From NCBI GenBank assembly GCA_030917865.1, contig JAUPTX010000001.1:365-64364 (forward strand): a stretch of DNA of 64,000 bases, written 5' to 3'. The number at the start of each line of letters is the position of its first letter. Positions within the stretch are counted from its first letter, which is position 1. The translations under genes and the position numbers were made by a program. Below are positions 2,628 to 32,345 of the stretch, one piece after another. Source of the stretch: Patescibacteria group bacterium. Its GTDB lineage: Bacteria; Patescibacteriota; Minisyncoccia; Phycocordibacterales; CSBR16-119. The notes beneath the pieces were generated by a model. That model made no database searches and was not told the DNA's origin. It was given only the letters and a program-made list of their open reading frames with translations.

Positions 2628-3899
2628 ATGAGTTTTTGGAGAAAAATAAAAACAGCTTTCGGTGATAAATCAATTCGAAGAAGAATTTTATTCGTATTGT
2701 TTATCCTTGCTGTTTTTAGACTCTTATCAACTATACCAATACCAGGAGTGGATGCTTTCAGACTTCAAGGTTTCTTGCAAAGTAGTCAATTCCTAGGAAT
2801 ACTTAATATATTCTCTGGTGGTGGATTATCAGCGCTTTCTATTGTGATGCTTGGTATTGGACCATACATTACAGCTTCAATCGTGATGCAGCTTATGACT
2901 ATGATGTCACCTAGACTAAAGTCTATGTATCACGAAGAAGGTGAAGCAGGTAGAGCAAGATTTTCTCAGTATTCAAGAATATTAACTATTCCTTTGTCAT
3001 TGATTCAGGGATTTGCACTTCTAAAACTTCTTGATAGTCAGGGTATATTAGAGTCTATGACATCTTTCGATAAGGCAGTTGCTCTTATTGTTATCACTGC
3101 GGGATCCATGTTCTTGTTATGGCTTGGTGAACTTATCAATGAAAAGGGTATCGGAAACGGTACATCTATAATAATCTTTGCTGGTATCGTGGCAGCACTT
3201 CCAGCTCAGATTAGTCAGTTCGCTTTTACATTTACAAAAGCAAGCATACCTCTTTATCTTGGATTTGCTCTTGTGGCAGTCTTGGTGATATTGGGTGTGG
3301 TTCTCGTTACTGAAGCGGAAAGAATGATTCCTATAACTTATGCAAAGCAAGCACGAGTTGGTGGGTCTTTAGGACAGTCTTCTTCATATCTACCGATCAA
3401 AATCAACCAAGCTGGAGTTATGCCGATAATTTTCGCCTTGTCGATATTGTCGCTTCCTCAACTTCTTGCACCTTTTATGACTGTTTCAAATATTGAAATA
3501 ATCAAAAAGGTTGGTGATGCGTTTACTTGGTTTACTCAAAATGCAAACTGGTGGTATTCAATCGCTTACTTTGTTTTGGTTTTCTTGTTCACATACTTCT
3601 ACACAGCTATTACAGTTGAACCAGAAGCGATGGCAACAAATCTACAAAAAAGCGGTGCGTTTATTCCAGGGATCAGACCGGGAACATCTACAACAGAATA
3701 CCTAAGTAAAATAATTACAAGAGTGACTTTCTTAGGAGCGTTGTTCTTGGGTGTTATAGCGGTTCTTCCGTTTATAATGCAACAGTTATCAGGTCTTCAG
3801 ACTTTGGCCATAGGAGGTACTGCACTTCTTATCGTTGTGTCTGTGGTGCTAGATATTCTAAAGAAAATAGATGGACAAGTTTCGATGAGACAATACTAA
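2628..3899 (+). CDS. secY: Preprotein translocase subunit SecY
   Basis: 423 aa and multi-pass. The N-terminal region RRRILFVLFILAVFRLLSTIPIPGVD is SecY-like, and the gene follows L15. Confidence 0.95.
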   Translation: MSFWRKIKTAFGDKSIRRRILFVLFILAVFRLLSTIPIPGVDAFRLQGFLQSSQFLGILNIFSGGGLSALSIVMLGIGPYITASIVMQLMTMMSPRLKSMYHEEGEAGRARFSQYSRILTIPLSLIQGFALLKLLDSQGILESMTSFDKAVALIVITAGSMFLLWLGELINEKGIGNGTSIIIFAGIVAALPAQISQFAFTFTKASIPLYLGFALVAVLVILGVVLVTEAERMIPITYAKQARVGGSLGQSSSYLPIKINQAGVMPIIFALSILSLPQLLAPFMTVSNIEIIKKVGDAFTWFTQNANWWYSIAYFVLVFLFTYFYTAITVEPEAMATNLQKSGAFIPGIRPGTSTTEYLSKIITRVTFLGALFLGVIAVLPFIMQQLSGLQTLAIGGTALLIVVSVVLDILKKIDGQVSMRQY

Positions 3900-3901
3900 A
3901 T

Positions 3902-3937
3902 AAAAACACAACCCCGGTTCTACCGGGGTTTTGTTTT
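3902..3937. terminator. Bidirectional stem-loop terminator between secY and the antisense ORF
   Basis: Stem CCCCGG / CCGGGG with A-rich and T-rich flanks. It overlaps the last codons of ORF 3920..4366. Confidence 0.7.
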
Positions 3938-4366
3938 GGGCTTTTGAAGCCTAAATGTGCTTTTCAAGTATTCTGGGTAGTATGAGAAGAATCCTCTCTT
4001 ACTTATTCCAGAAATATATTTCAATTTCATATCAGCAATTTCTTCACTATCAAATTCATTTGGAAACATATCTGTTTCCTTGTATGAAAGTAGGGTTCTC
4101 TGAAACTCACGCAGTTCACAGAACGCTCTATAGTAGACTTCACGCCTTTTTTGTAGATCTTTGAATTCTACTCGGTTTCTATATAGACCAAGGTGAAAAT
4201 CAGGTTCTTGCGCTATGCTTTTTATGGTTGAATTAAAATCACTTTCATGAATAATCGTGTAGATTTTCTTTGCCTCCCTGACTTTTTTGTGGAGTTTTGA
4301 AAGCTTGATAAACATCCATCTAACGTAGTGAGCGTAAGCTGCGAAGATTACTAAAAAGTACAACAT
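3920..4366 (-). CDS. Hypothetical membrane-anchored protein, antisense to the spc operon
   Basis: 148-aa ORF with an N-terminal hydrophobic helix (MLYFLVIFAAYAHYVRWMFI). It fills the whole secY-adk gap and contains no motif I recognise. Confidence 0.55.
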   Translation of the reverse strand: MLYFLVIFAAYAHYVRWMFIKLSKLHKKVREAKKIYTIIHESDFNSTIKSIAQEPDFHLGLYRNRVEFKDLQKRREVYYRAFCELREFQRTLLSYKETDMFPNEFDSEEIADMKLKYISGISKRGFFSYYPEYLKSTFRLQKPKTKPR

Positions 4367-4467
4367 TTTTAGGGGTTTTGTTTGAATATTATCAATTTAA
4401 GTTGTAATGGTCAAAAGTGGTTTTTTCTTGCGATATTTGTTATTCTTACTTAGTAATAATTAAATTT

Positions 4468-5067
4468 ATGGATAAACAGCAAACATTTATATTTTTTGGA
4501 AGATCAGGGTCTGGTAAGGGTACACAAGCCAAGCTTCTTATAGAGCATTTAAATAAGGTTAAAAGTAATGGTAATCTATACATAGAAACAGGTCAGCAGT
4601 TTAGAAATTTTATTGCAAAAGAACACAATCATTCAGCAAATCTCACAAGAAAAGTTTTAGATGAGGGCGGTCTTATGCCGGTTTTTATGCCAATTTGGCT
4701 TTGGACTGGGATAATAGTTGATAAATTTACAGGAAAAGAAGATTTGATTTTAGACGGTCTTTGTCGAAGAAAAGATGAGGCGCCAGTTCTAGATTCTGCG
4801 GTTAAATTTTTTGGACTTGAAAAACCAAATATTATTTATATAAATACAGGAAAAGAATGGTCTCTTGAAAGATTAAGAGATCGAGGTAGAGAAGACGACG
4901 ATAAGGAAGAAGATATGCTTCGAAAATTAAATTGGTTCGATTGGAATGTTATGCCGGCAATGTCTTATTTCCATGAAAGTCCCGACTATAATTTCATAGA
5001 AGTTAATGGTGAAAAATCTATCGAAGAAGTTCATGCTGAAATAATCCAAAAGATTTTTGGTAAATAA
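4468..5067 (+). CDS. adk: Adenylate kinase (short form, no Cys4 lid)
   Basis: P-loop FFGRSGSGKGTQAKLL. An ATG at 4468 is preferred over the GTG at 4417. The position after secY is canonical. Confidence 0.85.
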   Translation: MDKQQTFIFFGRSGSGKGTQAKLLIEHLNKVKSNGNLYIETGQQFRNFIAKEHNHSANLTRKVLDEGGLMPVFMPIWLWTGIIVDKFTGKEDLILDGLCRRKDEAPVLDSAVKFFGLEKPNIIYINTGKEWSLERLRDRGREDDDKEEDMLRKLNWFDWNVMPAMSYFHESPDYNFIEVNGEKSIEEVHAEIIQKIFGK

Positions 5068-5068
5068 A

Positions 5069-5830
5069 ATGATAACAATTAAAACAAAAGAAGATATCGA
5101 AAAACTAAGAGAGGGCGGAAAACGTCACGCGGAAATTTTGCGTAAGGTTTCTGAGATGGTTGCGCCCGGTGTAACTACAAAAGAGCTCGACGAATACGCC
5201 CATAGGCTGATAATAGAAGGCGGAGACACTCCAGCTTTTTTGAATTACACACCAGAGGGTGTTTCTTATCCGTACCCGGCTTCTCTTTGTGTTTCTGTAA
5301 ACGACGAGATTGTTCACGGGATTCCATCTGATTTTGTTTTAGAAGAAGGCGATATTGTTTCTTTAGATCTTGGACTTGTTCACAAGGGCATGATTACGGA
5401 TTCTGCGATAACTGTGCCTTGTGGTCATGTTTCAAAAGACGTGCAAAAGCTTTTAGAGGTTACAAAAGGCGCTCTTAATGTTGCTATAAAAAATATTAAA
5501 CCAGGAAATAAAACAGGAGACGTTGGTCACGCGATAGAAGAATTTGTGAAGCCTTATGGATTTGGGATTGTTAAGATTTTAGCCGGTCACGGCGTAGGGT
5601 ATTCTGTACACGAGGATCCATATGTTCCAAACTATGGAAAACCGGGTACGGGGGAAGAATTGCGACCAGGGATGGTTTTGGCTATAGAGCCTATGTTAAA
5701 CCTGGGAACTGACGAAGTATATGTCACAGAAGATGAATACACATATATTACTGCAGATGGAAAAAAGTCCGCACACTTTGAACATACTGTTGTGGTCACA
5801 GAAGAAGGTTGTGAGGTGTTAACTAAATAA
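5069..5830 (+). CDS. map: Methionine aminopeptidase, type I
   Basis: Motifs VHGIP, DLG..H.G.ITDSA, GHGVG and LAIEPM are present. The ATG at 5069 lies 1 nt after the adk stop. Confidence 0.95.
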   Translation: MITIKTKEDIEKLREGGKRHAEILRKVSEMVAPGVTTKELDEYAHRLIIEGGDTPAFLNYTPEGVSYPYPASLCVSVNDEIVHGIPSDFVLEEGDIVSLDLGLVHKGMITDSAITVPCGHVSKDVQKLLEVTKGALNVAIKNIKPGNKTGDVGHAIEEFVKPYGFGIVKILAGHGVGYSVHEDPYVPNYGKPGTGEELRPGMVLAIEPMLNLGTDEVYVTEDEYTYITADGKKSAHFEHTVVVTEEGCEVLTK

Positions 5831-5833
5831 ATT

Positions 5834-5868
5834 AAAACAAAAGTCAGGTATTATCTGGCTTTTGTTTT
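5834..5868 (+). terminator. Rho-independent terminator after map
   Basis: AAAACAAAAGTCAG / CTGGCTTTTGTTTT stem (one mismatch) with a T-run. Confidence 0.7.
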
Positions 5869-5900
5869 ATGTAAATTAGATAATTTGATACAATAAAAGA

Positions 5901-8642
5901 ATGGAAGGTACATATTTTAAAGAAGCACCAAAATTTAATTCTCCAGAAGAGGAGATTAAGTTTTTGCGCGATCATATAGAAAATAGGGAAAAAGAACTTC
6001 GAGAATCTGGAACAGAAAAAACAAAAGAACAAGTGACAAAAGAAGCTTTAACAGCGTATGATCTTTTACCTAAAGAAGAAATTTTACATAAAAATTATGT
6101 ACAAAAAGAAGAAGATATAGACGCTATTGTTTTGCGATTAAAGCCAGAGGCTCATGATGAAAAAATATCAGAGCTTTATGGCTATCTTCTAGAAAATGGT
6201 TTGAAAAATACTTTAGATTTGGTTTCTAGGATGAACGACCCACATATAGAAGACGATTTTCATCGTTTTCTTGTGCAGTTTTTGCATGCCTCTGGAGAAG
6301 TCCCAGGTCTTCGCGAAGGTTCTCCAGAATTTAAATCTTTGAATCTTGCTTTGTTTGAAGTAACTCTTCCCGGAAATGTAAAAGAAGAAAAGAAAACATT
6401 CGTAGACTTTATCACCGGCATGAAACAGTTTCTTTTGGGTATGCAGTCTATTTCTCGCGGAGAGAATAATAAAGAAAAGCAGTATTACACTTTAGAAATA
6501 GCAAATAGTGCTAATTCAAACGATTTGGTTATTTACGTTTCTATTCCAAAAGAAAAAAGAGAGCTTTTAGAAAAACAGGTCTTGGCTTTCTATCACGATG
6601 CAAAAGTTAAAGAGTGTGTAGACGACTACAATATTTTTAGTATGGATTCTTCGGTTGTGGCTTCATATGCTTCTTTGTCAAAAGAAGATGTTTTTCCGAT
6701 TACAACATACGAAGATTTAGGTCATGATCCGATGAGTGCTGTTTTGAATGCTTTTTCAAAGCTGGAAAAAGTCTCAGAAGGTGCTGCTATACAGATAGTG
6801 GTGACTCCAGTAGGTGACGGTATGATAAAGAAATTTTCTTCAATTTTAGAGAAAGTTAAAAAGGGAGAAAAGTTAAAAGACGCAATGGATGAATATGGAG
6901 AAATAAAAAAAGAATTGAAAAATTTTGCTGCTGGAATTTTTGCTCCTAAAAAAATAGATGAAGATCAAAACAAAGAAAAAGATATAGATTCTGACATAAT
7001 AGAAGCGATAAATATAAAACTCAAAAGCACGATAGTTGATACAAATATCAGAATAGTTGCTTCTGCTCAAAGCAAATCTAGAGCCGAAGATATTGCTTCA
7101 GATATCGAATCATCTTTTGAGCAGTTTAATAAAGCAAAGCACAATAGTTTTAAATGGAATAGAGTTGGTCCAAAAGACTTGTCTTTGTTTTTGCATAATT
7201 TTTCTTTCAGACTTCAAAACGAAAAACACTCAGTGCCTTTGAATTTAGAAGAGCTTTCTACTATTTTCCATTTCCCAATTAGTGAAAATGCTACACCGGA
7301 ACTCAAAGAATCAAAAGCTGGACAGGCGCCAGCTCCGACAGATATGGGCGACTCTGGCGTGCTTTTGGGTAAAAATATTTACAGAGGAAAAGAAACACCA
7401 ATTTTAATGGACTCAGAAGACCGTATGCGACACTTCTATGTTATCGGTCAAACTGGAACAGGTAAGACAACAATACTTAAAAATATGATTGCTCAAGATA
7501 TTCGCAATGGCCATGGTTGTTGCTTTATCGATCCACACGGCACAGATGTTCAAGAAATTTTAAGTTATGTTCCAAAAGAGAGAATGGAAGACGTGATATA
7601 TTTCGATCCTTCTTTTACAGAGCGTCCAATGGGGCTCAACATGCTTGAGTTTGATTCAAATTACCCAGAACAAAAAACTTTTGTTATAAACGAACTGATG
7701 GGAATTTTCAACAAGCTTTTTGATATGAAAGTGGGCGGAGGTGCGATGTTTGAACAATATTTCAGAAACAGTACTGGACTTGTGATGGAGCATCCAGAAT
7801 CAGGAAATACATTGCTTGAAATAGGGCGTGTTTTGTCTGATAAGAAATTCCGCGATATGAAACTCGCAAATTGTAAAAATCCTTTGATTAAGCAATTCTG
7901 GAAAAGTGCAGAAGCAACTTCTGGTGAACAAGGTCTTGAAAATTTCGTGCCTTATATCACTTCGAAATTTGATGGATTTTTGTCGAACGAGATTATGCGT
8001 CCGATAGTAACTCAAGAAAAATCTGCGTTTAATTTCAGAGAAATAATGGATAACAAAAAAATCCTTTTGGTAAATTTAGCAAAAGGTCGTTTGGGTGAGA
8101 TAAACTCAAACCTTATCGGTATGATTTTAGTTGGTAAACTTCAAATGGCAGCACTTTCAAGAGTTGATTTGTATGGAAAGAAAATGAATGATTTTTATCT
8201 ATACATAGACGAATTCCAAAACGTCACCACAGATTCTATCTCGTCAATTCTCTCAGAAGCTAGAAAATACAGACTTTCTCTTAATATGGCTCACCAGTAT
8301 ATCGCCCAGTTGGAAGACGGTATCCGCGATGCGGTATTTGGAAACGTTGGTTCTATGGCTGTCTACCGAGTTTCTCCTGAAGACGCAGAATTTTTAGAGA
8401 AAAAATTCCAGCCTATTTTCACCGCGACAGATATTACTAAACTCGACAACTTTAATTCATATGTAAATATGCTTTTGCGTGGAACTCCGACTAAACCTTT
8501 TAGTATGGAATGTCACTGGTCTATAATCCCGTCAGGGGACAAAGATATGGTGGATTCTCTAAAACAGCTTTCGTATTTGAAATTTGGAAGACCGAGAGCT
8601 GAGGTGGAAAATGAGATTTTGGAGAAATTTGAGAAAATGTAG
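5901..8642 (+). CDS. VirD4/TraD-like (FtsK/HerA superfamily) P-loop ATPase with an uncharacterised ~480-aa N-terminal region
   Basis: Walker A is YVIGQTGTGKTT and Walker B is FYLYIDEFQ. The RKYRLSLNMAHQ segment is typical of coupling-protein-like ATPases. No hydrophobic N-terminal helices are visible. Confidence 0.7.
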   Translation: MEGTYFKEAPKFNSPEEEIKFLRDHIENREKELRESGTEKTKEQVTKEALTAYDLLPKEEILHKNYVQKEEDIDAIVLRLKPEAHDEKISELYGYLLENGLKNTLDLVSRMNDPHIEDDFHRFLVQFLHASGEVPGLREGSPEFKSLNLALFEVTLPGNVKEEKKTFVDFITGMKQFLLGMQSISRGENNKEKQYYTLEIANSANSNDLVIYVSIPKEKRELLEKQVLAFYHDAKVKECVDDYNIFSMDSSVVASYASLSKEDVFPITTYEDLGHDPMSAVLNAFSKLEKVSEGAAIQIVVTPVGDGMIKKFSSILEKVKKGEKLKDAMDEYGEIKKELKNFAAGIFAPKKIDEDQNKEKDIDSDIIEAINIKLKSTIVDTNIRIVASAQSKSRAEDIASDIESSFEQFNKAKHNSFKWNRVGPKDLSLFLHNFSFRLQNEKHSVPLNLEELSTIFHFPISENATPELKESKAGQAPAPTDMGDSGVLLGKNIYRGKETPILMDSEDRMRHFYVIGQTGTGKTTILKNMIAQDIRNGHGCCFIDPHGTDVQEILSYVPKERMEDVIYFDPSFTERPMGLNMLEFDSNYPEQKTFVINELMGIFNKLFDMKVGGGAMFEQYFRNSTGLVMEHPESGNTLLEIGRVLSDKKFRDMKLANCKNPLIKQFWKSAEATSGEQGLENFVPYITSKFDGFLSNEIMRPIVTQEKSAFNFREIMDNKKILLVNLAKGRLGEINSNLIGMILVGKLQMAALSRVDLYGKKMNDFYLYIDEFQNVTTDSISSILSEARKYRLSLNMAHQYIAQLEDGIRDAVFGNVGSMAVYRVSPEDAEFLEKKFQPIFTATDITKLDNFNSYVNMLLRGTPTKPFSMECHWSIIPSGDKDMVDSLKQLSYLKFGRPRAEVENEILEKFEKM

Positions 8643-8666
8643 TATGGTTTATAGTCTATAGTTTTT

Positions 8667-8697
8667 AGAAAGGGCGCGCCTCTGGCGCGCCCTTTCT
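8667..8697 (+). terminator. Rho-independent terminator
   Basis: AGAAAGGGCGCGCC-TCTG-GCGCGCCCTTTCT hairpin followed by T-rich sequence. Confidence 0.85.
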
Positions 8698-8776
8698 ATT
8701 GTTAAAATCATTTGATTAAACCTCCTTAAAATGCTAATATCACTCTATTAACAGGTTAAAACTAATTTAAAAATAT

Positions 8777-9376
8777 ATGGACGGAAAGCAAGAAAGAACT
8801 TTCATAATAATAAAACATGACGGGGTTCAGAGATCTCTCGTTGGTGAAATTATTAAAAGAATTGAGAGAACAGGTCTTAAGATAACAGCTATGAAAATGT
8901 TTAAAGCAGATGAAAAATCTGTTTTGGATCACTATGGAAAAGACGATGCTTGGTGTTTGGAAAAAGGGACAAAGACAGTTGAAAATCTAAAAGCAGCTGG
9001 TCGCCCAGTAGAAAAAGAAGCTATTGAATACGGAAGAGATATAATCAGAGCTTTGGTTAAATTTATGACTTGTGGTCCGATTGTGGCGATGGTTGTAGAG
9101 GGTTCTCAGGCTGTAGGCGTTGTTAAAAAACTAGTTGGAGGTACAGAACCACTAACTTCTGATGTTGGAACTATAAGAGGAGATCTAACAACAGATTCAT
9201 ACCAACTGGCAAATCTTGATGCAAGATCTGTGCGAAACTTGATCCACTGTACAGATAAAGTAGAAGAATCAGAAAGAGAGATAAACATTTGGTTTAAACC
9301 AGAAGAGATAATGAACTACACTCATATAAATGAAAAAGTTCTACACGATATAAATTTAGACGGAATATTTGAATAA
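8777..9376 (+). CDS. ndk: Nucleoside diphosphate kinase (long form with an internal insertion)
   Basis: N-terminus ERTFIIIKHDGVQRSLVGEIIKRIE and catalytic-His context NLIHCTD (canonical N..HGSD). At 199 aa it is longer than the usual ~140-150 aa. Confidence 0.85.
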   Translation: MDGKQERTFIIIKHDGVQRSLVGEIIKRIERTGLKITAMKMFKADEKSVLDHYGKDDAWCLEKGTKTVENLKAAGRPVEKEAIEYGRDIIRALVKFMTCGPIVAMVVEGSQAVGVVKKLVGGTEPLTSDVGTIRGDLTTDSYQLANLDARSVRNLIHCTDKVEESEREINIWFKPEEIMNYTHINEKVLHDINLDGIFE

Positions 9377-9380
9377 AAAA

Positions 9381-9417
9381 CAAAAGAGGGCGCCTTCAGC
9401 GCCCGCTTTTGTTTTTT
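9381..9417 (+). terminator. Rho-independent terminator
   Basis: GGGCGC-CTTCA-GCGCCC stem followed by a T-run. Confidence 0.85.
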
Positions 9418-9688
9418 ATTTTTTCTTGTCAATGTGGATATTAAAAAGGTGAAGTTTTTTGTTTGTGTAAATATTGTTTTTTATTTTTCTAAAGTATAGA
9501 ATAAGACTACGGTTATTACAGATTATTATCTAGACAAGTATTATACGGGAGCAGTATGTTGGAATGTTCTGTGGAATATTTCACTTCGCACCCACTTAGC
9601 GTAAGAGCTAGGATAATACATCTTAATAGCCGTAAAAAGAAACTCATTCCACTTTGTGGGGATGGGTTTTTTCTGTTTTTCTAGTAAA

Positions 9689-10135
9689 ATGTATATTGTA
9701 ATGATTAATTTAAGACACAAGTTTTTTAAGTCCTTTTCGGTTTGGCTATTTTTTGTTTTTATACTTAACTCTTTAGCAAATTTTTTCTTTTGGTATTCTT
9801 CGATAAAACAATTCGATATGTTGATGCATTTTTTGGGCGGTTTTACGGCATCTCTTTTTTCTTTTTGGTTTATATATAAAAAATGTATTTTATGGATTGA
9901 GTCTGGCAACGCTTCAAAACTCTTTAGAGTTCTGCTTTTGATGGTTATAGTTATCGCACTTCTGTGGGAGATAATGGAATTTTTAGTTCAAGATATTTTT
10001 GGCGTCACTGTTTTGGCAAATATTCCAGATTCTATGAGTGACCTACTGTTCGGTGCTTTGGGAGGAGTTTTTGGATATTTATATTTGATAAGAAAATATA
10101 AGAAAGAAAAAATAAAAGATCCTATAACAATATAA
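9689..10135 (+). CDS. Hypothetical polytopic membrane protein (start uncertain: 9656, 9662 or 9689)
   Basis: Several hydrophobic segments, for example FSVWLFFVFILNSLANFFFW and VLLLMVIVIALLWEIMEF. The stop lies 1 nt before the next gene. The overlapping minus-strand ORF looks like noise. Confidence 0.6.
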   Translation: MYIVMINLRHKFFKSFSVWLFFVFILNSLANFFFWYSSIKQFDMLMHFLGGFTASLFSFWFIYKKCILWIESGNASKLFRVLLLMVIVIALLWEIMEFLVQDIFGVTVLANIPDSMSDLLFGALGGVFGYLYLIRKYKKEKIKDPITI

Positions 10136-10136
10136 T

Positions 10137-11498
10137 ATGTCTAATTTAAAGATTAAATTTTGTGGAGGTGCTGGCTCTGTGACAGGAGCGAATTTTTTGA
10201 TATACGACGATAACATAAAAGTTCTGGTTGATTGTGGGCTAGAGCAGGGTAGTAAAATGGCAGAAACGACAAACTGGGAACCTTTCCCATACAATCCTAA
10301 AGAAATAGATTTTCTTTTGGTGACACATGCTCATACAGACCATATCGGCAGGATTCCAAAACTTATACATGATGGATTTTCTGGAAAAATAATCAGTACA
10401 CCAGCAACAAAAGACTTGTCACGGATAATGCTCGAAGACACTGCACGCATACTTTCAAATTCAGAAAGTGGAAAAAAGTTTGGCTTAGATGAAATTTATA
10501 GTGAGGAAGTTATCCAAAAAATATTTTCTATTTGGGATACAGAAGATTTACATAAAGAATTTTCTTTAAATTCTGATGTTAAAATTTACATGAAAGATTC
10601 CGGACATATTCTGGGTTCTAGTATGTTTATTATCGATTGGTCTGGAAAAAAGATTGTCTTCACTGGGGATTTAGGAAATTCTCCTTCTCCGCTTTTGCCT
10701 GATACAGAATATATAGATTCTGCGGATTATGTGATCATGGAAAGTGTTTATGGAGACAGAAATCATGAAGAAAGAAACGAAAGAAGAGAAAATTTAAAGA
10801 AGATTATGAATGAGAATCATAAAAAGTCTGGCATTTTGGTTGTACCGATATTTTCTTTAGAAAGAACCCAAGAGTTTTTGTATGAAATGAACGAATTAAT
10901 AGAAGGTGGAGAAGTTCCACATATGAGTGTTTATGTTGATTCTCCCTTAGCTATAAAAGTCACGGATATTTTTTATAAATATAAAAATCTTTTCAAAGAA
11001 TCTGTCAGAAACGATATTAAGAAAGGCGACGACATATTTAATTTCAAAGGTCTTCGCGAAACAGAAAAGACTAGCGATTCAAAGGCAATACTTAATTCTA
11101 AAAACCCTAAAATAATAATGGCCGGCTCCGGGATGTCTGCTGGTGGTAGAATAATGCACCATGAAAAAAATTATCTAGGTGATCCAAATGCAACAATTTT
11201 AATAACAGGTTTTCAAACGCCTGGCACTCCAGGGCGACTTCTTCTGGACGGTGCTAAAGAGATAAATATTTTTGATGAAACGGTTAAAATTAACGCGCAG
11301 ATTAAAATGATTAAAGGATATTCTGGGCACAGAGATTCGAACGGTCTTTTTGATTTTGTTTCAAATATTAAAGATGTTAAAAAAGTTTTTTTGGCGATGG
11401 GGGAACCACGAGTCGCAATGTTTTTCGCACAAAGGATAAATGATAATTTGCCAACAAAAGCAGTTGTTCCAGAAAAAGATCAAGAATTTATTCTATAG
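10137..11498 (+). CDS. MBL-fold beta-CASP family nuclease (CPSF/RNase J-related)
   Basis: Metallo-beta-lactamase motif LVTHAHTDHIGRIP, followed by later Asp/His motifs (DSGHILGS, GYSGHRD). Confidence 0.8.
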   Translation: MSNLKIKFCGGAGSVTGANFLIYDDNIKVLVDCGLEQGSKMAETTNWEPFPYNPKEIDFLLVTHAHTDHIGRIPKLIHDGFSGKIISTPATKDLSRIMLEDTARILSNSESGKKFGLDEIYSEEVIQKIFSIWDTEDLHKEFSLNSDVKIYMKDSGHILGSSMFIIDWSGKKIVFTGDLGNSPSPLLPDTEYIDSADYVIMESVYGDRNHEERNERRENLKKIMNENHKKSGILVVPIFSLERTQEFLYEMNELIEGGEVPHMSVYVDSPLAIKVTDIFYKYKNLFKESVRNDIKKGDDIFNFKGLRETEKTSDSKAILNSKNPKIIMAGSGMSAGGRIMHHEKNYLGDPNATILITGFQTPGTPGRLLLDGAKEINIFDETVKINAQIKMIKGYSGHRDSNGLFDFVSNIKDVKKVFLAMGEPRVAMFFAQRINDNLPTKAVVPEKDQEFIL

Positions 11499-11515
11499 TT
11501 TGTTATAATATTTTT

Positions 11516-12067
11516 ATGGAGAAGAAATCTAAATTTAAAATATGTGTAGCCGGAGCTGTGGAGACAAGCGCGTGCGGACTCGATTCTTTAGAGATGGCTA
11601 AGGAGATCGGTCGTGAGATTGCAAAATCCGGAAATGTTTTGATTACCGGCGCTGGAGCTGGGTTCCCAATGTGGGCTGCAGGTGGTGCCAAAGAAGAAGA
11701 TGGTGACACTCTCATGTTTTCTCCAGCCGGAAGTAAAAGAGAGCACAAAGAGGCATATAGACTTTCTGATAATGTTCACGATATTATAATCTACACAGGT
11801 TTTGGATACGTTGGCAGCGACCTTTTGATGACCAAGTCTTCAGACGCAGTGATAATTGGTTGCGGAAAGGTTGGCACTATACATGAATTCACGATGGCAT
11901 ACGAAGAAGGAAAACCAATCGGAGTTTTAGAGGGTCCGTGGGATACAGACGAAGTAATAAGAGCTATTGTTGGAGATAAAAAGAGAACAGACAAACCAAT
12001 AGTTTTTGATAGTGATCCTAAAAGGCTGGTTAAAAAAATAATAGAAATTATTTCTCATAGGCAATAA
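11516..12067 (+). CDS. TIGR00725-like / LOG-SLOG Rossmann-fold protein
   Basis: KICVAGAVETSAC ... NVLITGAGAGFPMWAAGGA ... AVIIGCGKVGTIHEF. The pattern resembles the LOG/DprA-like (SLOG) fold. Confidence 0.5.
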   Translation: MEKKSKFKICVAGAVETSACGLDSLEMAKEIGREIAKSGNVLITGAGAGFPMWAAGGAKEEDGDTLMFSPAGSKREHKEAYRLSDNVHDIIIYTGFGYVGSDLLMTKSSDAVIIGCGKVGTIHEFTMAYEEGKPIGVLEGPWDTDEVIRAIVGDKKRTDKPIVFDSDPKRLVKKIIEIISHRQ

Positions 12068-22183: not shown

Positions 22184-23113
22184 ATGGAATGGTTTATATT
22201 AGCTCTCCTGGCTCCTATTGTTTGGGCATTGGGTAATCATATCGATGCATTTTTGGTGAAGCGTTTTATAAAAGACGAAGCTGGAGGTGGGTCTCATGGG
22301 GTTGGATCTCTTATCATAATGTCTTGCTTAATTGGTATTTTAATTTTGCCAATTACATTTTTGTTTAACCCAGAAGTTTTTATCGTTGCAAAAGAAACAA
22401 GATTTATTCTTATCGCCGTTGGATTCCTGGAGGGTCTCTCTGTTTTGGCTTATCTTTATGCTGTTATGGAAGACGACATCGCATCTGTTACAGCTTGGTT
22501 TAATACAATTCCAATATTTAATCTTGTGTTAGGTTTTTTGGTTCTAGGTGAGGTTATAACTAAAAATCAGTTTTTAGGCTTTTTGATTATAATTATAGGG
22601 TTAGTCATTCTTTCTTTTAAGAGAACAGAGATCGGCTTGCTTTTTAAAAAGAAAGTAGTATTTCTAATGCTCTTATCTTCTTTCTCTTATGGCCTTATGA
22701 CGATTCTTTTTAAAATTGGAGCAGAGGTGGAATCTTTTTGGGTATCTTCGTTTTGGCAATATGTTGGATTGAGTGTTTTGGGGCTTATATTTTTTATTTT
22801 TATCAAGCCATATAGAAATTCTTTTTTAAAAATATTTAAAAATAAAGGGTTAAAATTTTACTCAATTAATACATTAAATGAGTTTTTGTTTATTGCGGGA
22901 ACTATGATTTCAAATTATGCCTCACTTCTTGCTCCTGTTGCACTGGTCTCACTCGTAGGATCTTTCCAGCCGGTGATTGTCGTTATACTCGGTTCTATTA
23001 TTGCTCTTTTTCTAAAGGAGAAAAACGAATACACTATTACTAAAAAACAGAGAATTGCTCAAATCGCAGGAATACTATTTACAATAGCTGGTTTACCTTT
23101 TATTTTATTCTAA
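22184..23113 (+). CDS. DMT/EamA-type permease
   Basis: About 10 hydrophobic helices in two similar halves. Confidence 0.6.
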   Translation: MEWFILALLAPIVWALGNHIDAFLVKRFIKDEAGGGSHGVGSLIIMSCLIGILILPITFLFNPEVFIVAKETRFILIAVGFLEGLSVLAYLYAVMEDDIASVTAWFNTIPIFNLVLGFLVLGEVITKNQFLGFLIIIIGLVILSFKRTEIGLLFKKKVVFLMLLSSFSYGLMTILFKIGAEVESFWVSSFWQYVGLSVLGLIFFIFIKPYRNSFLKIFKNKGLKFYSINTLNEFLFIAGTMISNYASLLAPVALVSLVGSFQPVIVVILGSIIALFLKEKNEYTITKKQRIAQIAGILFTIAGLPFILF

Positions 23114-24403
23114 ATACCCCCACAACTTCAGCTTCTCTTTACTTTCTTGGATGAATTTTATACCAATGTCATTTCTATACATGACTTTTGGGATAATAAC
23201 TTTTTCTGCAATATCATAAACCTTATTACGTGCCTCTTCTACCGTATCTCCAATACCTGTGATATATCCAACATATCCATCCTGTCCAGATATTCGATAT
23301 GTCCCATTTATGTCGCACATCACATCTTCAAAGTGTAGGTGGTTTTTTTCTTCTTCTGTTAGGTTTTCAAAATAAATTCCAATATTCTCATAAGCGTTTT
23401 CTGTTCTCGAAATACCTTTTGTGTATGGGAAAGGCGGTACTGCTAGTAATATCACAACACCATAACCATTTTTGTATTTTAAATTAAAGCTTTCTCCTTT
23501 AGCTATTGCTAATAAAAAATCAGCCCATTGGGAAACATGTATTTCTTGTTGCAGGTGTATTATCGGTGTACCAAGCCTTGTAGTCGCTTCAATTGCAAAT
23601 ATCCCTTTTTCATTGGCAATACAATTAATCTCAAAATCACCACGGAAATTTGCACTTTTTAAGAAATTTTCAAATGGTGATAATATTTTTCTAAATAAAA
23701 AATTATCTCTTTCTTCATACCAAGCAAGTGTCCCCATTTCGCTTGTTAATGGACCAATATCTCCAGGAAAAAATCTTTTATGTTCAAAATTTATTTCTGT
23801 TGGACCAATCCATTTTTCACCATTAAAATATCTTCCAACTCCAATCTCGACACCATCTATAAACTGGTGAAGGGTTACAGGGTGAGTATTTATCATTGGA
23901 TCGTTTGCGTAGTTTTGTAGCACTGAAATAACGTCTTCTCCTGATTCCGTCTTTCCTATATAAGTAATATCTTTTGATATGTGATCGTTTTGTTTGATAA
24001 CCCAACGCCCACCGTTATTTTGAACAAATTTTAGTGCTTCGTTTGGAGATGGAAAATCAAATAATTTTGTAGTTGAAATTCCATATCTTCTAAAAACCTC
24101 TTGACCATATTCTCTATTTATTTCAAGCTTTTCAGCCTCTGCGCTTCCGCCAAAAACATTAAAACCTTCTTTCCTTAAATAATCTTGATTTTCTCCGTAT
24201 CCAATATCATCAAAAACGATCAAGCCATCTTCTTTTACCCAATCAAGTTCAAGCTCCCAATTTTCTGTTTTGGGAACAATACCGTCTAAGCTTTTTTTTG
24301 ATTTTGGATTTTCTATAAAAAGTTTAACTTCGTTTCCTTCTGTGTATAGCTTTCGTGCGAGATCTCCGCCAATAAGATTTTTAGATACAAATAATATTTT
24401 CAT
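23105..24403 (-). CDS. ATP-grasp enzyme, PurD-like (phosphoribosylamine-glycine ligase family)
   Basis: EHKRFFPGDIGPLTSEMGT aligns with PurD QDHKRVGDKDTGPNTGGMG. The C-terminal YRNDIG matches CRKDIG. Confidence 0.55.
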   Translation of the reverse strand: MKILFVSKNLIGGDLARKLYTEGNEVKLFIENPKSKKSLDGIVPKTENWELELDWVKEDGLIVFDDIGYGENQDYLRKEGFNVFGGSAEAEKLEINREYGQEVFRRYGISTTKLFDFPSPNEALKFVQNNGGRWVIKQNDHISKDITYIGKTESGEDVISVLQNYANDPMINTHPVTLHQFIDGVEIGVGRYFNGEKWIGPTEINFEHKRFFPGDIGPLTSEMGTLAWYEERDNFLFRKILSPFENFLKSANFRGDFEINCIANEKGIFAIEATTRLGTPIIHLQQEIHVSQWADFLLAIAKGESFNLKYKNGYGVVILLAVPPFPYTKGISRTENAYENIGIYFENLTEEEKNHLHFEDVMCDINGTYRISGQDGYVGYITGIGDTVEEARNKVYDIAEKVIIPKVMYRNDIGIKFIQESKEKLKLWGYLE

Positions 24404-26061: not shown

Positions 26062-27237
26062 TTATTTTCTAGCTTTTATTTTAGCTTTTAGTTCCTGGGC
26101 GGCTTTTATGTACCCACCGTCTGTTCCGTCTATGAAATTTATATATTCTTTTTCTCTTTTATGGACATAGCAGGTGATGGTCGTAGATTCGGTACCAAAA
26201 TGACCAAAAAGTATTTCACCACTTTTTTCTCTTCTTTGTAATTTTTTGAGCAACTCTTCTTTTTGTTTTTTGGTTCCGGCTATTATTGTTTTTAAAGCTC
26301 CGTCGATTTTTAGTGTATCTGTCGCAGTGGCAATATCTCCATGAATATAGTCTTCGTGGATTTGTATTGGAAGTTTGATGTTTGATTTAATATATACCTT
26401 GCTCAAGAAAGATTTAACCATCTGAAATCCGGTGTATAGAATATTTAATCTTCCATATTTTATTTTCGAAGCCTTTGAAAGAGTTTTAAAATCAGAGCTG
26501 TGTCCGATTTCTTTTTCTCCGACAGGATGCCTTCTTTTAAAAGAACCATAAACTTCTTCTATATCTTCTAGGATTTTTTTGTAAGTTATTGTTTGACCTT
26601 TTTGTTTTAATGGTTGAACTATCAAAACAAGAATGTTTTTTTTGTGTGACGGTGGCTCTATTTCGTTCCATCTACATTGAAGACCAGAAAGGTTTAGCTT
26701 CCTTTCTTCTCCTTCTTTTCTTGAAAGAAATCTTTTGTCGCTCTTGATGATTTTTTCTGCTTGAGCAAGTCCGACGCCTAAAAAGATTGCTTGAGTGTAA
26801 TCTTCTACAATTTTTATTTTCGCAACTTTTAATCTGTGTCCGTATTTTTTAAGATTTTCTATAGAAATAGATCCAACACGAAGCGAAAGTTTGAAGTTGT
26901 ATTTTGCATTGTTTCGGAGAGTTGTTAATGCCTCTAAAACTTCATCTAAAATTTTTCCTGGAATAACCATCGATGCGCCGTCGCCACCGTAAATAAAAGG
27001 AATTTCGATTCCGTATTTGTCTGCGACGTTTAGTGCGATGATAATCGAGCTGGCAGATATAATATTCATTTCTTTGTATTTGCCGTTGTTGAATTCGTCT
27101 GTTGAGTTTTCGATATCTGTGACAACTATGTGCCAGTCGTTCGGAACACTTTTAAAATACGACTCTTCTGTAAGAGCTTCTTCTAGCTGTGTTTTAATCA
27201 CAGGAATTTGTTTGTAGAAATTTTCTGTGTTTATCAT
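26062..27237 (-). CDS. DUF3095-like protein (putative nucleotidyl-cyclase-like fold)
   Basis: HIVVTDIENST ... PFIYGGDGASMVIP resembles the class III cyclase metal-binding pattern. The call rests on recollection of the family. Confidence 0.45.
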   Translation of the reverse strand: MINTENFYKQIPVIKTQLEEALTEESYFKSVPNDWHIVVTDIENSTDEFNNGKYKEMNIISASSIIIALNVADKYGIEIPFIYGGDGASMVIPGKILDEVLEALTTLRNNAKYNFKLSLRVGSISIENLKKYGHRLKVAKIKIVEDYTQAIFLGVGLAQAEKIIKSDKRFLSRKEGEERKLNLSGLQCRWNEIEPPSHKKNILVLIVQPLKQKGQTITYKKILEDIEEVYGSFKRRHPVGEKEIGHSSDFKTLSKASKIKYGRLNILYTGFQMVKSFLSKVYIKSNIKLPIQIHEDYIHGDIATATDTLKIDGALKTIIAGTKKQKEELLKKLQRREKSGEILFGHFGTESTTITCYVHKREKEYINFIDGTDGGYIKAAQELKAKIKARK

Positions 27238-28725: not shown

Positions 28726-29361
28726 TTAATGAGCTAATGTAAATCCATAAACTTTTTTAGCTCCAGCATTTTTCAAAATTTTCCTGGCCTCGAGAATGGT
28801 TGCGCCTGTTGTTGTTACATCATCTATTAAAATTAGAACTTTGTTTTTTATCTTATTTTTATTTTTAACTTCAAAAGAATTTTTAATATTATTTTTTCTT
28901 TCGTTTTTGTTCTTGATTTTGTTTTGGGATATATGGTTCGTCTTTTTGTATAGAATATTTGAATTTACTAAATCTTGATTTAAAGTTTTTGCTATAAATT
29001 CGGACTGATTGTAGCCTCTTTTGTTTAGACTTCTTTTTGTTATTGGGATTGGTATTAAAACAAAATCATTTTTTTTAATTTTATTTTTTTCTAGAAAAAA
29101 ATCGAATTCTTTTATGATTTCATTTTCGAGGTCTTCTAACACAGAATGCTTTTTATTAAATTTTAAAAACCAAATAATTTTCTTAACATTTTTATCTCTG
29201 TAGTTAAATATCGGGTGTATAAAATCTTCGGGAGTGCTATATATCTTTGGTAGGTTTTTAATACATTTTTCGCAAATCCAAAAATCGCTTAACCCGCACC
29301 CTATGCATTTTTTAGGGAACAGGAAAAGTAATATTTTTTTATAGATTTTGTTTATTAACAT
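28726..29361 (-). CDS. comFC: ComF family protein (ComFC-like phosphoribosyltransferase)
   Basis: N-terminal Cys pairs CIGCG...CEKC. C-terminal PRTase motif VLILIDDVTTTGATI. Confidence 0.8.
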   Translation of the reverse strand: MLINKIYKKILLFLFPKKCIGCGLSDFWICEKCIKNLPKIYSTPEDFIHPIFNYRDKNVKKIIWFLKFNKKHSVLEDLENEIIKEFDFFLEKNKIKKNDFVLIPIPITKRSLNKRGYNQSEFIAKTLNQDLVNSNILYKKTNHISQNKIKNKNERKNNIKNSFEVKNKNKIKNKVLILIDDVTTTGATILEARKILKNAGAKKVYGFTLAH

Positions 29362-29415
29362 TTAATATAATTTTACACAATTTATTTAAAATTACTCGTG
29401 GTATAATTGGAATAT

Positions 29416-30552
29416 ATGTCTAATCCACTTTCTTCGATTTTAGGAAAATTTAGCGGGCTTTTAAAAAGCAGTGGCGGCGATAGCGCTATCGGTGTTGATA
29501 TTGGTTCTTCTGCTATAAAAATTGTTCAAATTAAAAAAGAAAAAGGTCGTGCGATTTTAGAAACTTACGGCTCTCTTTCTATTGGTCCATATGCAGAGGG
29601 TCAGGTGGGCCAGGTTGTTCCTGTCTCAGAAGAGGCCCTCGTTGCTGCCCTAAACGACTTGTTAAAAGAATCTAACTCCACAACAAAAAATGCCGCCGTC
29701 TCAATACCTGCGTCTAACTCTTTAGTTTTCCTTATGGAGCTTCCTCGAAATGTTTTAGAGAAAGATATATCAAGCATCATACAAACAGAATCAAGAAAAT
29801 ACATCCCTGTGCCCATAACAGAAGTTTCTTTGGATTGGTGGATAATACCTAAAAGACCAGAAGATGGATACACAGACGATTCGCCAAAACCTGCAAAACA
29901 AGATATCAATCAAGAATCAACAAAAGTTCTTGTTGCAGCTATTCATAATGACACTCTTGCAAAATATCAGGGTTTTATCAAAAACGCCAAACTCGAAACA
30001 GATTTTTTTGAAATAGAAATGTTCAGTAACTTAAGAGCTGTGATAGGTCAGGAACTGGGAACTATAATGATCGTAGATATTGGTGCATCAAAAACAAAAG
30101 TTTCGATTATCGATCGTGGTGTAATTCAAGATTTTCACATGGTTAATAAAGCATCTCAAGACATTACGATATCTCTGTCGACAGGACTTCAGATACCTTT
30201 TCAGGATGCAGAAGATAATAAAAAAAGATACGGTATTTTAGAAAATCCTAAATATCCTAAAGCAAAAGAAATTATAATATCAACACTTGAATATATATTT
30301 TTTGAAATAAATAATGTAGTATTAAACTATGAGAAAAAGTATAACAAGAGTGTTTCCAAAGTTATACTAACAGGTGGAGGTGCAATGCTGCCAGGGATTA
30401 TGAATATTGCTCCTTCAAAATTCAGTACTGAAGTTGTTCTAGGTAATCCTTTTACAAAAATAGAAGCACCTGCTTTCTTGGAAAAAGTTTTAGCAGAATC
30501 AGGACCAGAATTTGGAGTTGCTGCGGGTCTTGCATTACGTAAATTAAGTTAA
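29416..30552 (+). CDS. pilM: Type IV pilus assembly protein PilM (actin-like ATPase)
   Basis: IGVDIGSSAIKIVQI ... DIGASKTKVSII ... LTGGGAMLPGI. Confidence 0.85.
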   Translation: MSNPLSSILGKFSGLLKSSGGDSAIGVDIGSSAIKIVQIKKEKGRAILETYGSLSIGPYAEGQVGQVVPVSEEALVAALNDLLKESNSTTKNAAVSIPASNSLVFLMELPRNVLEKDISSIIQTESRKYIPVPITEVSLDWWIIPKRPEDGYTDDSPKPAKQDINQESTKVLVAAIHNDTLAKYQGFIKNAKLETDFFEIEMFSNLRAVIGQELGTIMIVDIGASKTKVSIIDRGVIQDFHMVNKASQDITISLSTGLQIPFQDAEDNKKRYGILENPKYPKAKEIIISTLEYIFFEINNVVLNYEKKYNKSVSKVILTGGGAMLPGIMNIAPSKFSTEVVLGNPFTKIEAPAFLEKVLAESGPEFGVAAGLALRKLS

Positions 30553-30554
30553 TT

Positions 30555-31172
30555 ATGGATAAAGAGTTTCAAACATCTTTTATACCGAAGAAGACAATAG
30601 TCGAATCTCCTAAGAGGGTTAGGAGCGGAGGTGGGATTATAAATCTCATATCTTTTATTGTTTTTGTTGCGTCTCTTTTATCTGCTGGCGGAGCTTATCT
30701 TTATAGAAATTCAGTAGAATCAGATATTGCAGAGTTTAAAAGATCTTTACAGATAGCTAAAAATCAATTTGAACCAAGCTTAATAGAAGAGCTTCAGGTT
30801 TTGGATAAAAGATTAAACGCAGCTACTACAATTTTAAATAAGCACGTCGCTGTTTCTCCTATATTTGTTTTACTCCAAGATATAACTCTACCAACTGTTA
30901 GATATTCTGATTTTACTTATGAAATAGATTCGTCTACAAGTCTTGTGAATATAGAAATGAAAGGTGAGGCAAAAGGTTACAACTTTATCGCTCTTCAAGC
31001 TGATTTATTTAGTGATAATAAATTTATAAAAAATCCTATCTTTTCTGATTTTATTTTAGATCAAACTGGAAACATAGATTTCAATCTTTCTTTTAGTGTA
31101 GACAAGTCTTTAATTTCTTATGAATCATTTATAGATAGAGAACAACCAACATTAGGAGATAATCAAATTTAG
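30555..31172 (+). CDS. PilN-like bitopic pilus alignment protein
   Basis: Single TM helix (IINLISFIVFVASLLSAGGAYLY) followed by a coiled-coil region. It occupies the position after pilM. Confidence 0.55.
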   Translation: MDKEFQTSFIPKKTIVESPKRVRSGGGIINLISFIVFVASLLSAGGAYLYRNSVESDIAEFKRSLQIAKNQFEPSLIEELQVLDKRLNAATTILNKHVAVSPIFVLLQDITLPTVRYSDFTYEIDSSTSLVNIEMKGEAKGYNFIALQADLFSDNKFIKNPIFSDFILDQTGNIDFNLSFSVDKSLISYESFIDREQPTLGDNQI

Positions 31173-31174
31173 TT

Positions 31175-31801
31175 ATGAGATGGCTTTTACCTTTAATTTT
31201 AATAGGTGGCGGTATAGCGGGCTTTTTGCTTGTGACTCAACCTATATATGAAGAAGCTTCTAATTTAAAAATAGAAGCTGATAAATACAACGAAGCTCTT
31301 TCAAATGCTAAAATTTTACAACAAGAAAGAGACAGGCTCACAGAAAAATTCAATAGTCTTAATCCAGAATATTTAGCTAGGCTTGAAAAAATTGTTCCAG
31401 ACAGCGTGGATAATATAAAACTTATTCTAGAGATTCAAGAAGTTGCTCAGGAAAGGGGTATTTTGGTTAAAAATGTTGAGTTTGAACCAGAGCAGTTTTT
31501 AGAACAAGACCCAGCTCAAACAGAAAACAATACAACAAATCAAAGACAGCAAACTGGAAATTTAAGAAGACCTGGGGCTGTTAGTAATCTAGATTATGAC
31601 GTTTACGATATCGAATTTTCTATAGAAGGCAAATATCCTGCTTTTGTTGAATTTATGAAGCTTCTCGAAAAGAGTTTGAGGGTTGTTGATGTTAGAGCTA
31701 TTTCTTTTACACCTGGAACATCTGAAGATCGTGATAAAATATACACAGATAATTATCGATATACTTTTAGAATAAATACATATCGACTAAAAGATTTATG
31801 A
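31175..31801 (+). CDS. PilO-like bitopic pilus alignment protein
   Basis: N-terminal TM helix followed by a coiled coil. The call rests on position. Confidence 0.5.
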   Translation: MRWLLPLILIGGGIAGFLLVTQPIYEEASNLKIEADKYNEALSNAKILQQERDRLTEKFNSLNPEYLARLEKIVPDSVDNIKLILEIQEVAQERGILVKNVEFEPEQFLEQDPAQTENNTTNQRQQTGNLRRPGAVSNLDYDVYDIEFSIEGKYPAFVEFMKLLEKSLRVVDVRAISFTPGTSEDRDKIYTDNYRYTFRINTYRLKDL

Positions 31802-32343: not shown

Positions 32344-32345
32344 TT

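Follow-up and report, generated by a model that had tools for sequence, protein, structure and literature searches.

Type IV coupling proteins (T4CPs) of the VirD4 type are carried by nearly all Patescibacteria: a survey of the phylum counted 5,713 homologs in 2,918 of 3,035 genomes (96%), of which no more than 148 lie close to virB4 (Quinonero-Coronel et al., 2025; PMC12102498). The same study found VirB4 in 2,417 genomes, with its genes near dnaA in the company of VirB3, VirB6 and TrsD; it reported that most genomes have a type IV secretion system (T4SS), that T4CP genes frequently lie apart from virB4 and that relaxases are nearly absent; and it noted that in S. epibionticum t4cp is dispensable while the T4SS genes are essential, the authors suggesting exaptation. 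Here we consider a gene that presents the same phenomenon. It lies in a stretch of 64,000 nucleotides (the window) from contig JAUPTX010000001.1 of a Patescibacteria group bacterium (assembly GCA_030917865.1), and its open reading frame (ORF), starting with ATG, encodes a 913-aa ATPase; with 1,215 matches at E ≤ 1e-3 in a homolog search with this protein, the gene is clearly real. We are somewhat inclined to read it as a domesticated nucleic-acid motor of mobile-element origin that has become a vertically inherited core gene and works without a relaxase or a linked T4SS. Like the orphan T4CPs of the survey it is of the VirD4 type and away from virB4, and members of its family, DUF8128, bear NCBI names of the T4SS/TraM-recognition type. 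The survey describes neither DUF8128 nor the VirB4-like fold, the alternation of membrane-anchored and fused forms or the ribosomal-operon synteny considered below.

The ATPase half of the protein, residues 481–913, is a T4CP-type motor, predicted from its sequence to be catalytically competent. Two Pfam coupling-protein families match it above their gathering cut-offs, TrwB_AAD_bind (PF10412, 29 bits against 20.5) and TraG-D_C (PF12696, 23.2 against 22), and a search of the PDB with a profile of alignment A3, which comprises 30 diverse homologs down to 36% identity, leads to TrwB (E = 2.3e-5) and DotL (E = 1.4e-4), with HerA-like helicases marginal and no VirB4 match. These results bear out the original prediction, made from the sequence of the window, which had called this half coupling-protein-like. 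The Walker A, Walker B and RKYRLSLNMAHQ segments on which it relied are found at residues 516, 765 and 788; their key residues are invariant across A3 (Table 1), as is an IDPHG motif, and, by analogy with T4CP and FtsK-HerA ATPases, RKYRLSLNMAHQ would provide the arginine finger and sensor. A helical block between the two Walker motifs, modeled by AlphaFold2 (AF2) at residues ~590–717 with a confidence of 60–80, may correspond to the all-alpha domain that T4CPs have inserted in their nucleotide-binding domain.

The likeness to TrwB of R388, VirD4, TraD and DotL has its limits, however. The top NCBIfam matches are TraD- or VirD4-like models, but all fall far below their equivalog cut-offs (TIGR03743, 50 against 366 bits; TIGR03754, 35.7 against 647; NF045973, 32 against 250). 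The gene is a chromosomal core gene, a cytoplasmic region of ~480 aa precedes the ATPase, and the N-terminal transmembrane anchor of T4CPs is missing, whereas relatives in other Patescibacteria lineages have one such helix. As had been predicted, the 913-aa protein appears soluble, without a transmembrane helix: the highest 19-residue Kyte-Doolittle mean is 1.28 over the whole protein and 1.11 within residues 1–480. With regard to other branches of the superfamily, DUF87 (PF01935) scores 27.5 bits against a cut-off of 23.2 but only over the P-loop stretch 493–547, and no HerA-style NurA-like neighbor was seen; the FtsK_SpoIIIE model (PF01580) reaches 18.7 bits, below its cut-off of 24, over residues 480–531 only, with no match to the gamma (KOPS-binding) domain.

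Residues 1–480 gave no match in local Pfam, NCBIfam or PDB sequence searches, and the original prediction had taken this region for a novel domain, charged and helical. The second of these descriptions fits residues 1–145, which are all-helical and contain 37% charged residues, but not residues ~146–460, which are mixed alpha/beta in the AF2 models (29% charged over residues 146–480). The claim of novelty fails, considering that orphan T4CPs have been reported in Patescibacteria and that the domain is already catalogued as DUF8128 (PF26449). The family is taken here from precomputed annotation, which assigns it to the identical protein and to all 120 best homologs listed. The phage and plasmid alignments described below, together with a VirB4-like core fold, tell equally against novelty.

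The AF2 model of residues 1–480, built from a diverse alignment, is good (pLDDT 80, pTM 0.74), and the top 13 matches in a Foldseek search of the PDB with this model are all TrwK/VirB4 chains from the T4SS of R388, with E values between 1.4e-5 and 7e-3 over ~400 columns, those beyond being noise. A Foldseek search with the full-length model likewise places TrwK first, with an alignment over both halves of the protein (E = 1.3e-9, as many as 906 columns), followed by DotL, TrwB and HerA (4d2i, E = 4e-3). Could the gene then encode the VirB4 of this lineage, the signature ATPase of a T4SS, rather than a T4CP? The overall plan, a soluble protein with an N-terminal alpha/beta domain and a C-terminal motor, is that of VirB4 (TrwK, PDB 7o42 and 8rtd), and TrwK is the sole significant PDB fold match of residues 1–480. 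In sequence, however, the protein matches neither AAA_10 nor CagE_TrbE_VirB in Pfam, it reaches 19.7 bits on TIGR00929 against a cut-off of 643 and over the P-loop only, and, as described, profile searches of the PDB lead to TrwB and DotL rather than to VirB4. Sequence homology to VirB4 was tried and rejected: hhalign against the VirB4/TcpF-type ATPases of Bacillus plasmids that carry a homolog of our gene gave a probability of 2%, and BLASTP against the VirB4 of one such plasmid gave E = 1.8. Neither the window nor the related loci have VirB3, VirB6 or VirB8 neighbors, and the published VirB4 genes of the phylum lie near dnaA, not at the secY-adk-map locus (PMC12102498). We thus regard identity with VirB4 as extremely unlikely, and, because the sequence-profile comparison is not significant, we state the VirB4 likeness of the core at the level of fold only. 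By analogy with VirB4, residues 146–480 probably offer a surface for oligomerization or for docking of a partner.

The N-terminal model is in fact closer to phage proteins than to VirB4; in BFVD it matches gp156 of Bacillus phage G (E = 3e-15) and proteins of phages JL and Slash, with TMq of 0.46–0.49. We note that in phage G the products of two adjacent genes, gp155 and gp156 (G3MBM1 and G3MBM2), each resemble the DUF8128 N-terminal region in fold (E = 1e-6 and 3e-15, respectively), which suggests a duplicated or split arrangement.

The acidic extension formed by residues 1–145 requires separate consideration. A search with residues 1–480 against 1.84 billion representative proteins returned 1,137 matches of two architectures, one of ~910 aa like the window protein, the other of ~790–840 aa with the equivalent of residues ~146–480 placed directly after a single N-terminal transmembrane helix (19-residue hydropathy mean of 1.9–3.1 in the first 30 residues). 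In six of seven relatives outside the ~910-aa clade (five of six transmembrane-type loci, and P0183), the ATPase gene is directly preceded, or overlapped at its start, by a small ORF; the sixth transmembrane-type locus examined has no small ORF upstream. These small ORFs encode soluble proteins of 129–162 aa that have no Pfam match and share homology over their ~50 C-terminal residues. It is with their C-terminal 40 aa that residues 93–129 of the window protein align, the common motif being G[ILV]xx[AT]..NP[HY][ILV]xDxxH; within it and its surroundings G100, P114, H115, D119, R122 and Q126 are invariant or nearly so (alignment A1). A hidden Markov model (HMM) of residues 1–145 put two of the small ORFs, L086_up and L087_up, at the top of a ranking of ~1,770 ORFs, both with E ~1.5e-3 and the next at 0.29. 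The reciprocal HMM, made from six small ORFs, gave 94 matches at E ≤ 1 among 1,845 ORFs, of which 92 are in the DUF8128 ATPase family and most fall at ATPase residues ~85–130 (best E = 3.8e-5). In a neighbor-joining tree of the motor domain, drawn without support values, all ~910-aa soluble forms make up one clade nested among the transmembrane forms. From the reciprocal HMMs, the abutting small ORFs and the nested position of the soluble clade, we infer that the upstream partner gene was fused to the ATPase gene and that the transmembrane helix was lost, its position being now taken by residues 1–145. The partner itself belongs to no Pfam family: a homology search with the small protein found 9 close relatives only, and PHROGs and Pfam scans of the partner proteins were empty.

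Beyond Patescibacteria, relatives are found on mobile elements. A tblastn search against plasmids gave 560 records (280 from Bacillus and 72 from Streptomyces, with others from haloarchaea and Sulfolobus), with alignments that extend into the DUF8128 core. The Bacillus and Shouchella plasmid homolog, annotated as ‘DUF87 domain-containing,’ is soluble and of similar length (883–913 aa), aligns with residues 192–867 (E = 2e-32) and differs in being plasmid-borne and in lacking the partner extension; its gene follows one for ParM and stands directly 5' of a Replic_Relax (PF13814) gene, after which comes a conjugation operon of Tcp-like type that includes an AAA_10 VirB4 of its own. The contexts on Streptomyces and haloarchaeal plasmids were uninformative, one being unannotated and the other amid hypothetical genes. 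We considered whether the Bacillus relatives might be the coupling protein of pLS20 and rejected this, because gene 48 of pLS20 is a canonical VirD4 with two transmembrane helices and no adjacent relaxase; the relatives therefore sit on other, Tcp-like plasmids.

The phage relatives are gathered in phrog_5156, whose profile matches nearly end to end (residues 192–912 against profile positions 75–810 of 824, E = 5.6e-80) and whose members include SPO1 gp27.4, phage G gp156, TP-84 gp48 and D6E ORF23. They share with the window protein the absence of a transmembrane helix and of a T4SS, and they provide the best fold matches for its N-terminal core; they differ in lacking the 145-aa extension, and identity is 20–22%. 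With SPO1 gp27.4, BLASTP gives E = 2e-21 and includes the conserved C-terminal tail, which can be aligned between the two proteins. In SPO1 an actin-like partition gene, gp27.9, comes before gp27.4, and a Replic_Relax gene, gp27.3, overlaps its end, so that the phage gene sits in the same kind of three-gene module as its plasmid counterparts (Table 1). The DUF8128 family is thus an old mobile-element module, composed of a partition actin, a motor and a nickase, that also works in phages; and since phages have no T4SS, the family can work without one. SPO1 infects Bacillus subtilis, which makes the module genetically tractable.

In Patescibacteria the gene has a different setting. Full-length relatives occur in at least 571 species-representative genomes, all of them Patescibacteria (Paceibacteria, Nomurabacteria, Minisyncoccia). 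We clustered the ORFs of 81 loci, and state synteny over 80 sampled loci. The recurrent order, with X for the ATPase gene, is secY-adk-(amino-acid-kinase-fold, PyrH-like)-map-X-ndk-(small transmembrane protein)-beta-CASP-SLOG. In 49 of 79 loci the first gene upstream is map, which is almost never more than three genes away; ndk follows directly (+1) in 40 of 76 loci, and in 63 it is no more than three genes off. The PyrH-like gene between adk and map is present in 54 loci. In the window the order is S8-L6-S5-L15-SecY-(147 aa, minus strand)-Adk-Map-ATPase gene-Ndk; variable inserts among the loci include CYTH, HD, cmk-like (minus strand) and DUF559 genes. Median identity to the window protein is 58.5%, against 59.5 for SecY, 60.2 for Map and 60.5 for IF3, with lower values for the beta-CASP protein (53), Adk (36) and Ndk (35). 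Across 80 genomes the median for the motor domain by itself is 73.5%. As the ATPase equals SecY, Map and IF3 in identity, its sequence indicates purifying selection at the housekeeping level.

This pattern bears on the proposal, contained in the original prediction, that the gene might encode a defense-type nucleoside triphosphatase (NTPase), such as a relative of Mad8 from the MADS system. A PADLOC mad8 model does match with 46 bits, and weak nSTAND P-loop matches appear in the Pfam scan. The mad8 match, however, is partial, covering residues 508–811 of the ATPase core only; the window neighbors are housekeeping genes, with no other MADS or defense genes nearby. Defense genes are typically patchy and island-like in distribution; the present gene is single, syntenic, vertically inherited and conserved at the housekeeping level. 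We consider a role in defense very unlikely.

A more serious rival is that the protein is a genuine coupling protein of the Patescibacteria T4SS encoded elsewhere (near dnaA in Paceibacteria), docking through its VirB4-like domain on the inner-membrane complex of VirB3, VirB4, VirB6 and VirB8 and energizing substrate transfer to or from the host. The ATPase is after all T4CP-type by sequence, a domain with a fold like the VirB4 N-terminal domain could use the same docking sites, and in the phylum at large T4CP genes are often unlinked to virB4 in genomes that mostly do have a T4SS (PMC12102498). The original prediction named, as one thing that would refute its claim of novelty, a consistent place of the gene in canonical conjugative T4SS islands of relatives, and here the picture is mixed: the relatives in Patescibacteria are never in such islands and the phage relatives have no T4SS at all, but in the distant Bacillus-plasmid relatives the gene and an adjoining relaxase-like gene open a Tcp-type conjugation operon that has a separate VirB4. 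Against a T4SS coupling role, Pfam scans of the window, which took in 46 of the 61 ORFs listed with 120 aa or more and among them every ORF of 239 aa or more, detected no family of relaxases, VirB4, VirB6 or other T4SS components, as had been predicted, and the neighborhood survey agrees, with no T4SS or relaxase neighbor in any of the 80 loci or of 8 further Patescibacteria loci. Furthermore, the membrane anchor is lost in the ~910-aa clade and the phage members of the family function without a T4SS. The dispensability of t4cp in S. epibionticum next to essential T4SS genes, and the occurrence of T4CP homologs in more genomes than VirB4, point the same way (PMC12102498). In our judgment a T4SS coupling role is unlikely, although it is the first among the rivals.

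Second among them comes a housekeeping chromosome motor, that is, an FtsK/SpoIIIE-like pump for segregation or dimer resolution, or a helper of replication or recombination, derived from a plasmid or phage partition-replication module. Its attraction lies in the conservation and fixed housekeeping synteny just described, in the actin-like partition (ALP/ParM) and nickase genes that accompany the mobile-element relatives, in the weak FtsK_SpoIIIE match and in the occurrence of FtsQ-POTRA, DnaX, RmuC, DnaB and RecJ among the neighbors of transmembrane-type genes. That match is below its gathering cut-off, however, the FtsK gamma domain is missing, and the division and replication neighbors are inconsistent between lineages, so that this explanation appears to us quite improbable; the defense NTPase and VirB4 rank third and fourth.

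Returning to the domesticated motor that we favor, we imagine it as follows. The protein would be a cytoplasmic P-loop motor of the T4CP branch of the FtsK-HerA superfamily, with intact catalytic residues, which would assemble into a ring and bind and move nucleic acid, at the expense of ATP, at or towards a membrane channel. Because it has no lipid anchor of its own, recruitment to the channel would be through protein contacts. That the substrate would be nucleic acid we infer from the T4CP lineage of the motor and from its pairing with a nickase in mobile elements. The process served might most likely be the handling of imported DNA or RNA, by a T4SS or by a type IV pilus/ComEC route, or perhaps other housekeeping DNA transactions; conjugative export is unlikely. 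The link to DNA uptake raised in the original prediction survives as no more than a hint, from a Wolfebacteria relative whose gene is 0.9 kb away from ComFC and the genes of a type IV pilus. Further hints towards uptake or handling of nucleic acid are RmuC 3' of the ATPase gene in two loci and the nucleotide-kinase neighborhood, though all of these are inconsistent between lineages.

Several observations weigh against this interpretation. The full-length AF2 model is mediocre (pLDDT 69, pTM 0.41), with residues 770–849, Walker B included, at a pLDDT below 50, and the TrwK/VirB4 similarity of the core is one of fold only, with modest TM-scores of 0.31–0.35 (TMq). In PHROGs phrog_5156 is annotated as of ‘unknown function,’ and full-text literature searches for ‘PF26449’ and ‘DUF8128’ returned no papers. 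No DUF8128-family accession was found among the entries listed in the supplements of the 2025 survey, so that the family is only a candidate member of its T4CP set. The argument for a nucleic-acid substrate is weakened by the fact that the Patescibacteria gene has no nickase partner, and that for a core function by the possibility that the fixed synteny across the 80 loci merely mirrors the close kinship of the genomes. Lastly, the neighbors of the transmembrane-type genes are inconsistent: ComFC and the type IV pilus once, RmuC twice, and FtsQ, PMT or DnaX three times.

One specific variant, in which the motor pulls host RNA or DNA inward at the inner face of a T4SS or of a type IV pilus/ComEC channel, deserves mention even though we give it only a slim prospect. 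Patescibacteria cannot make nucleotides. According to a 2026 preprint, a cultivated member of the phylum takes up host RNA, which is processed by PNPase, Adk and Cmk, the route of uptake being unresolved (bioRxiv 10.64898/2026.06.21.733656). If this variant were true, a coupling protein would be run ‘in reverse’ as a feeding device, its gene lying amid those for enzymes that convert imported polynucleotides to NTPs (Adk, PyrH-like kinase, Cmk-like kinase, Ndk and beta-CASP nuclease), and there would be a branch of T4CPs that has kept an N-terminal domain like that of VirB4, which would bear on the divergence of T4CPs and VirB4.

Irrespective of which process is served, the present analysis gives a class of orphan T4CPs an anatomy, consisting of a T4CP-type motor, a VirB4-like DUF8128 domain and a small partner that is separate when the ATPase is membrane-anchored and fused when it is soluble. 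Within the literature searched, the VirB4-like fold of DUF8128 and the alternation of the anchored and the partner-fused form are not described; nor are the housekeeping-level conservation combined with ribosomal-operon synteny and the link to the actin-motor-nickase module of SPO1 and the Bacillus plasmids. If it is true that the motor serves nucleic-acid acquisition or chromosome handling, this would explain a core gene of a very large bacterial radiation.

Table 1. Features of the ATPase gene, its flanks and the related three-gene modules (window coordinates, except in the last three rows, which give positions within the named loci).
Feature	Position	Strand	Residues	Evidence
Whole gene, predicted soluble ATPase (DUF8128 plus T4CP-like ATPase half)	5901..8642	+	1–913	ORF; phrog_5156; PF26449, PF10412 and PF01935 precomputed on the identical protein
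Acidic all-helical extension, putative fused copy of the small soluble partner	5901..6335	+	1–145	AF2 helices; reciprocal HMMs
Partner motif G-[ILV]-x-N-[AT]-L...N-P-H-[ILV]-x-D-D-F-H-R-F-L-V	6177..6287	+	93–129
DUF8128 core, alpha/beta domain with a fold like the VirB4 N-terminal domain	6336..7340	+	146–480	AF2; Foldseek
P-loop motor of T4CP (TrwB/VirD4/TraD) type	7341..8639	+	481–913	PF10412, PF01935, PF12696; PDB profile (TrwB, DotL); Foldseek (TrwB, DotL, HerA)
Walker A, GQTGTGKTT	7446..7472	+	516–524	G516, T518, G519, G521, K522 invariant in A3
Walker B, FYLYIDEFQ	8193..8219	+	765–773	D770, E771, F772 invariant in A3
RKYRLSLNMAHQ, putative arginine-finger and sensor segment	8262..8297	+	788–799	R788, K789, A797, H798, Q799 invariant in A3
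Conserved C-terminal tail, K..LS..K.GR.R.E.E.E	8562..8615	+	888–905	K888, L890, S891, G896, R897, R899, E901, E903, E905 invariant in A1
Hairpin between map and the ATPase gene, terminator-like	5833..5869	+		17-bp stem; dG (folding free energy) -18.6 kcal/mol; z -6.65; 0 of 200 shuffles fold as well
GC-rich hairpin 3' of the ATPase gene, terminator-like	8666..8698	+		15-bp stem; dG -29.5 kcal/mol; z -7.70; 0 of 200 shuffles fold as well
Three-gene module (ParM/ALP, DUF8128 ATPase, Replic_Relax nickase-like), locus L088	5034-12389
The same module, locus L089	5596-12068
The same module, locus L098 (SPO1)	2722-8232

The gene is flanked by two terminator-like hairpins, which the original prediction had placed at 5834–5868 and 8667–8697 and which direct folding confirms on both sides (z of -6.7 and -7.7). 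A scan for consensus terminators reported neither of them, because their U-tracts are imperfect. Elsewhere in the window, the stretch 28726–38528, 20 kb from the ATPase gene, contains a ComFC-like gene together with PilM, PilB, PilT, PilC, pilin and PilD, and Pfam identifies RecG, FtsH, LigA and RNase J, among others; a few ORFs are without any Pfam match.

One of these is the 147-aa ORF between secY and adk (3920–4366, minus strand); in many relatives its slot is occupied by a minus-strand gene of the cytidylate-kinase type. Ndk (8777–9376, plus strand) is unusually long at 199 aa, and the NDK Pfam model aligns to it in two separate stretches, suggesting either an inserted segment or an extended N terminus; compared with its neighbors it is weakly conserved, with the median identity of 35% given above. 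More generally, the neighborhood (window 4417–12067 and loci L003–L082) is rich in enzymes acting on nucleotide phosphates, with Adk, Ndk, a beta-CASP nuclease and a SLOG/LOG-like protein, and recalls the scheme of RNA-to-NTP salvage proposed for the phylum in 2026. Two metallo-beta-lactamase/beta-CASP nucleases are encoded in the window, a generic one at 10137–11498 (plus strand) and an RNase J with a C-terminal domain at 57374–59260 (minus strand), as are two SLOG/LOG-like proteins (11516–12067 and 51058–51777). On the minus strand we also note a GARS-like ATP-grasp protein with weak PurD-type matches (23105–24403), in a lineage where de novo purine synthesis is expected to be absent, and a DUF3095 protein (26062–27237; 337 bits) that adjoins a histidine kinase.

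Among the related loci, one metagenome-assembled genome (JBBQGX01) has two copies of the gene on two contigs (L016 and L042), whose products share 60% and 58% identity with the window protein; each copy has map before and ndk after, and L016 has the full secY-adk-map synteny; this bin is probably a mix of two related organisms rather than a case of true paralogs. As for the transmembrane-type loci, the Wolfebacteria relative mentioned above (L083, 10001–22379) has a type IV pilus operon that is complete, with PilM, a PilO-like protein, PilB, PilT, PilC, pilin and PilD. The gene for RmuC, a DNA recombination protein, lies directly or nearly directly 3' of the ATPase gene in two unrelated loci (L086, 12456–13460; L092, 10945–11955), and in L086 it begins before the ATPase gene ends. 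In L085 (12480–16573) the ATPase gene is followed by five consecutive genes without a Pfam match, several of them for proteins with multiple transmembrane helices; two of the genes (dn1 and dn3) are paralogous, one encodes a proline-rich, secreted-looking protein of 529 aa, and the products of the five might form a membrane complex.

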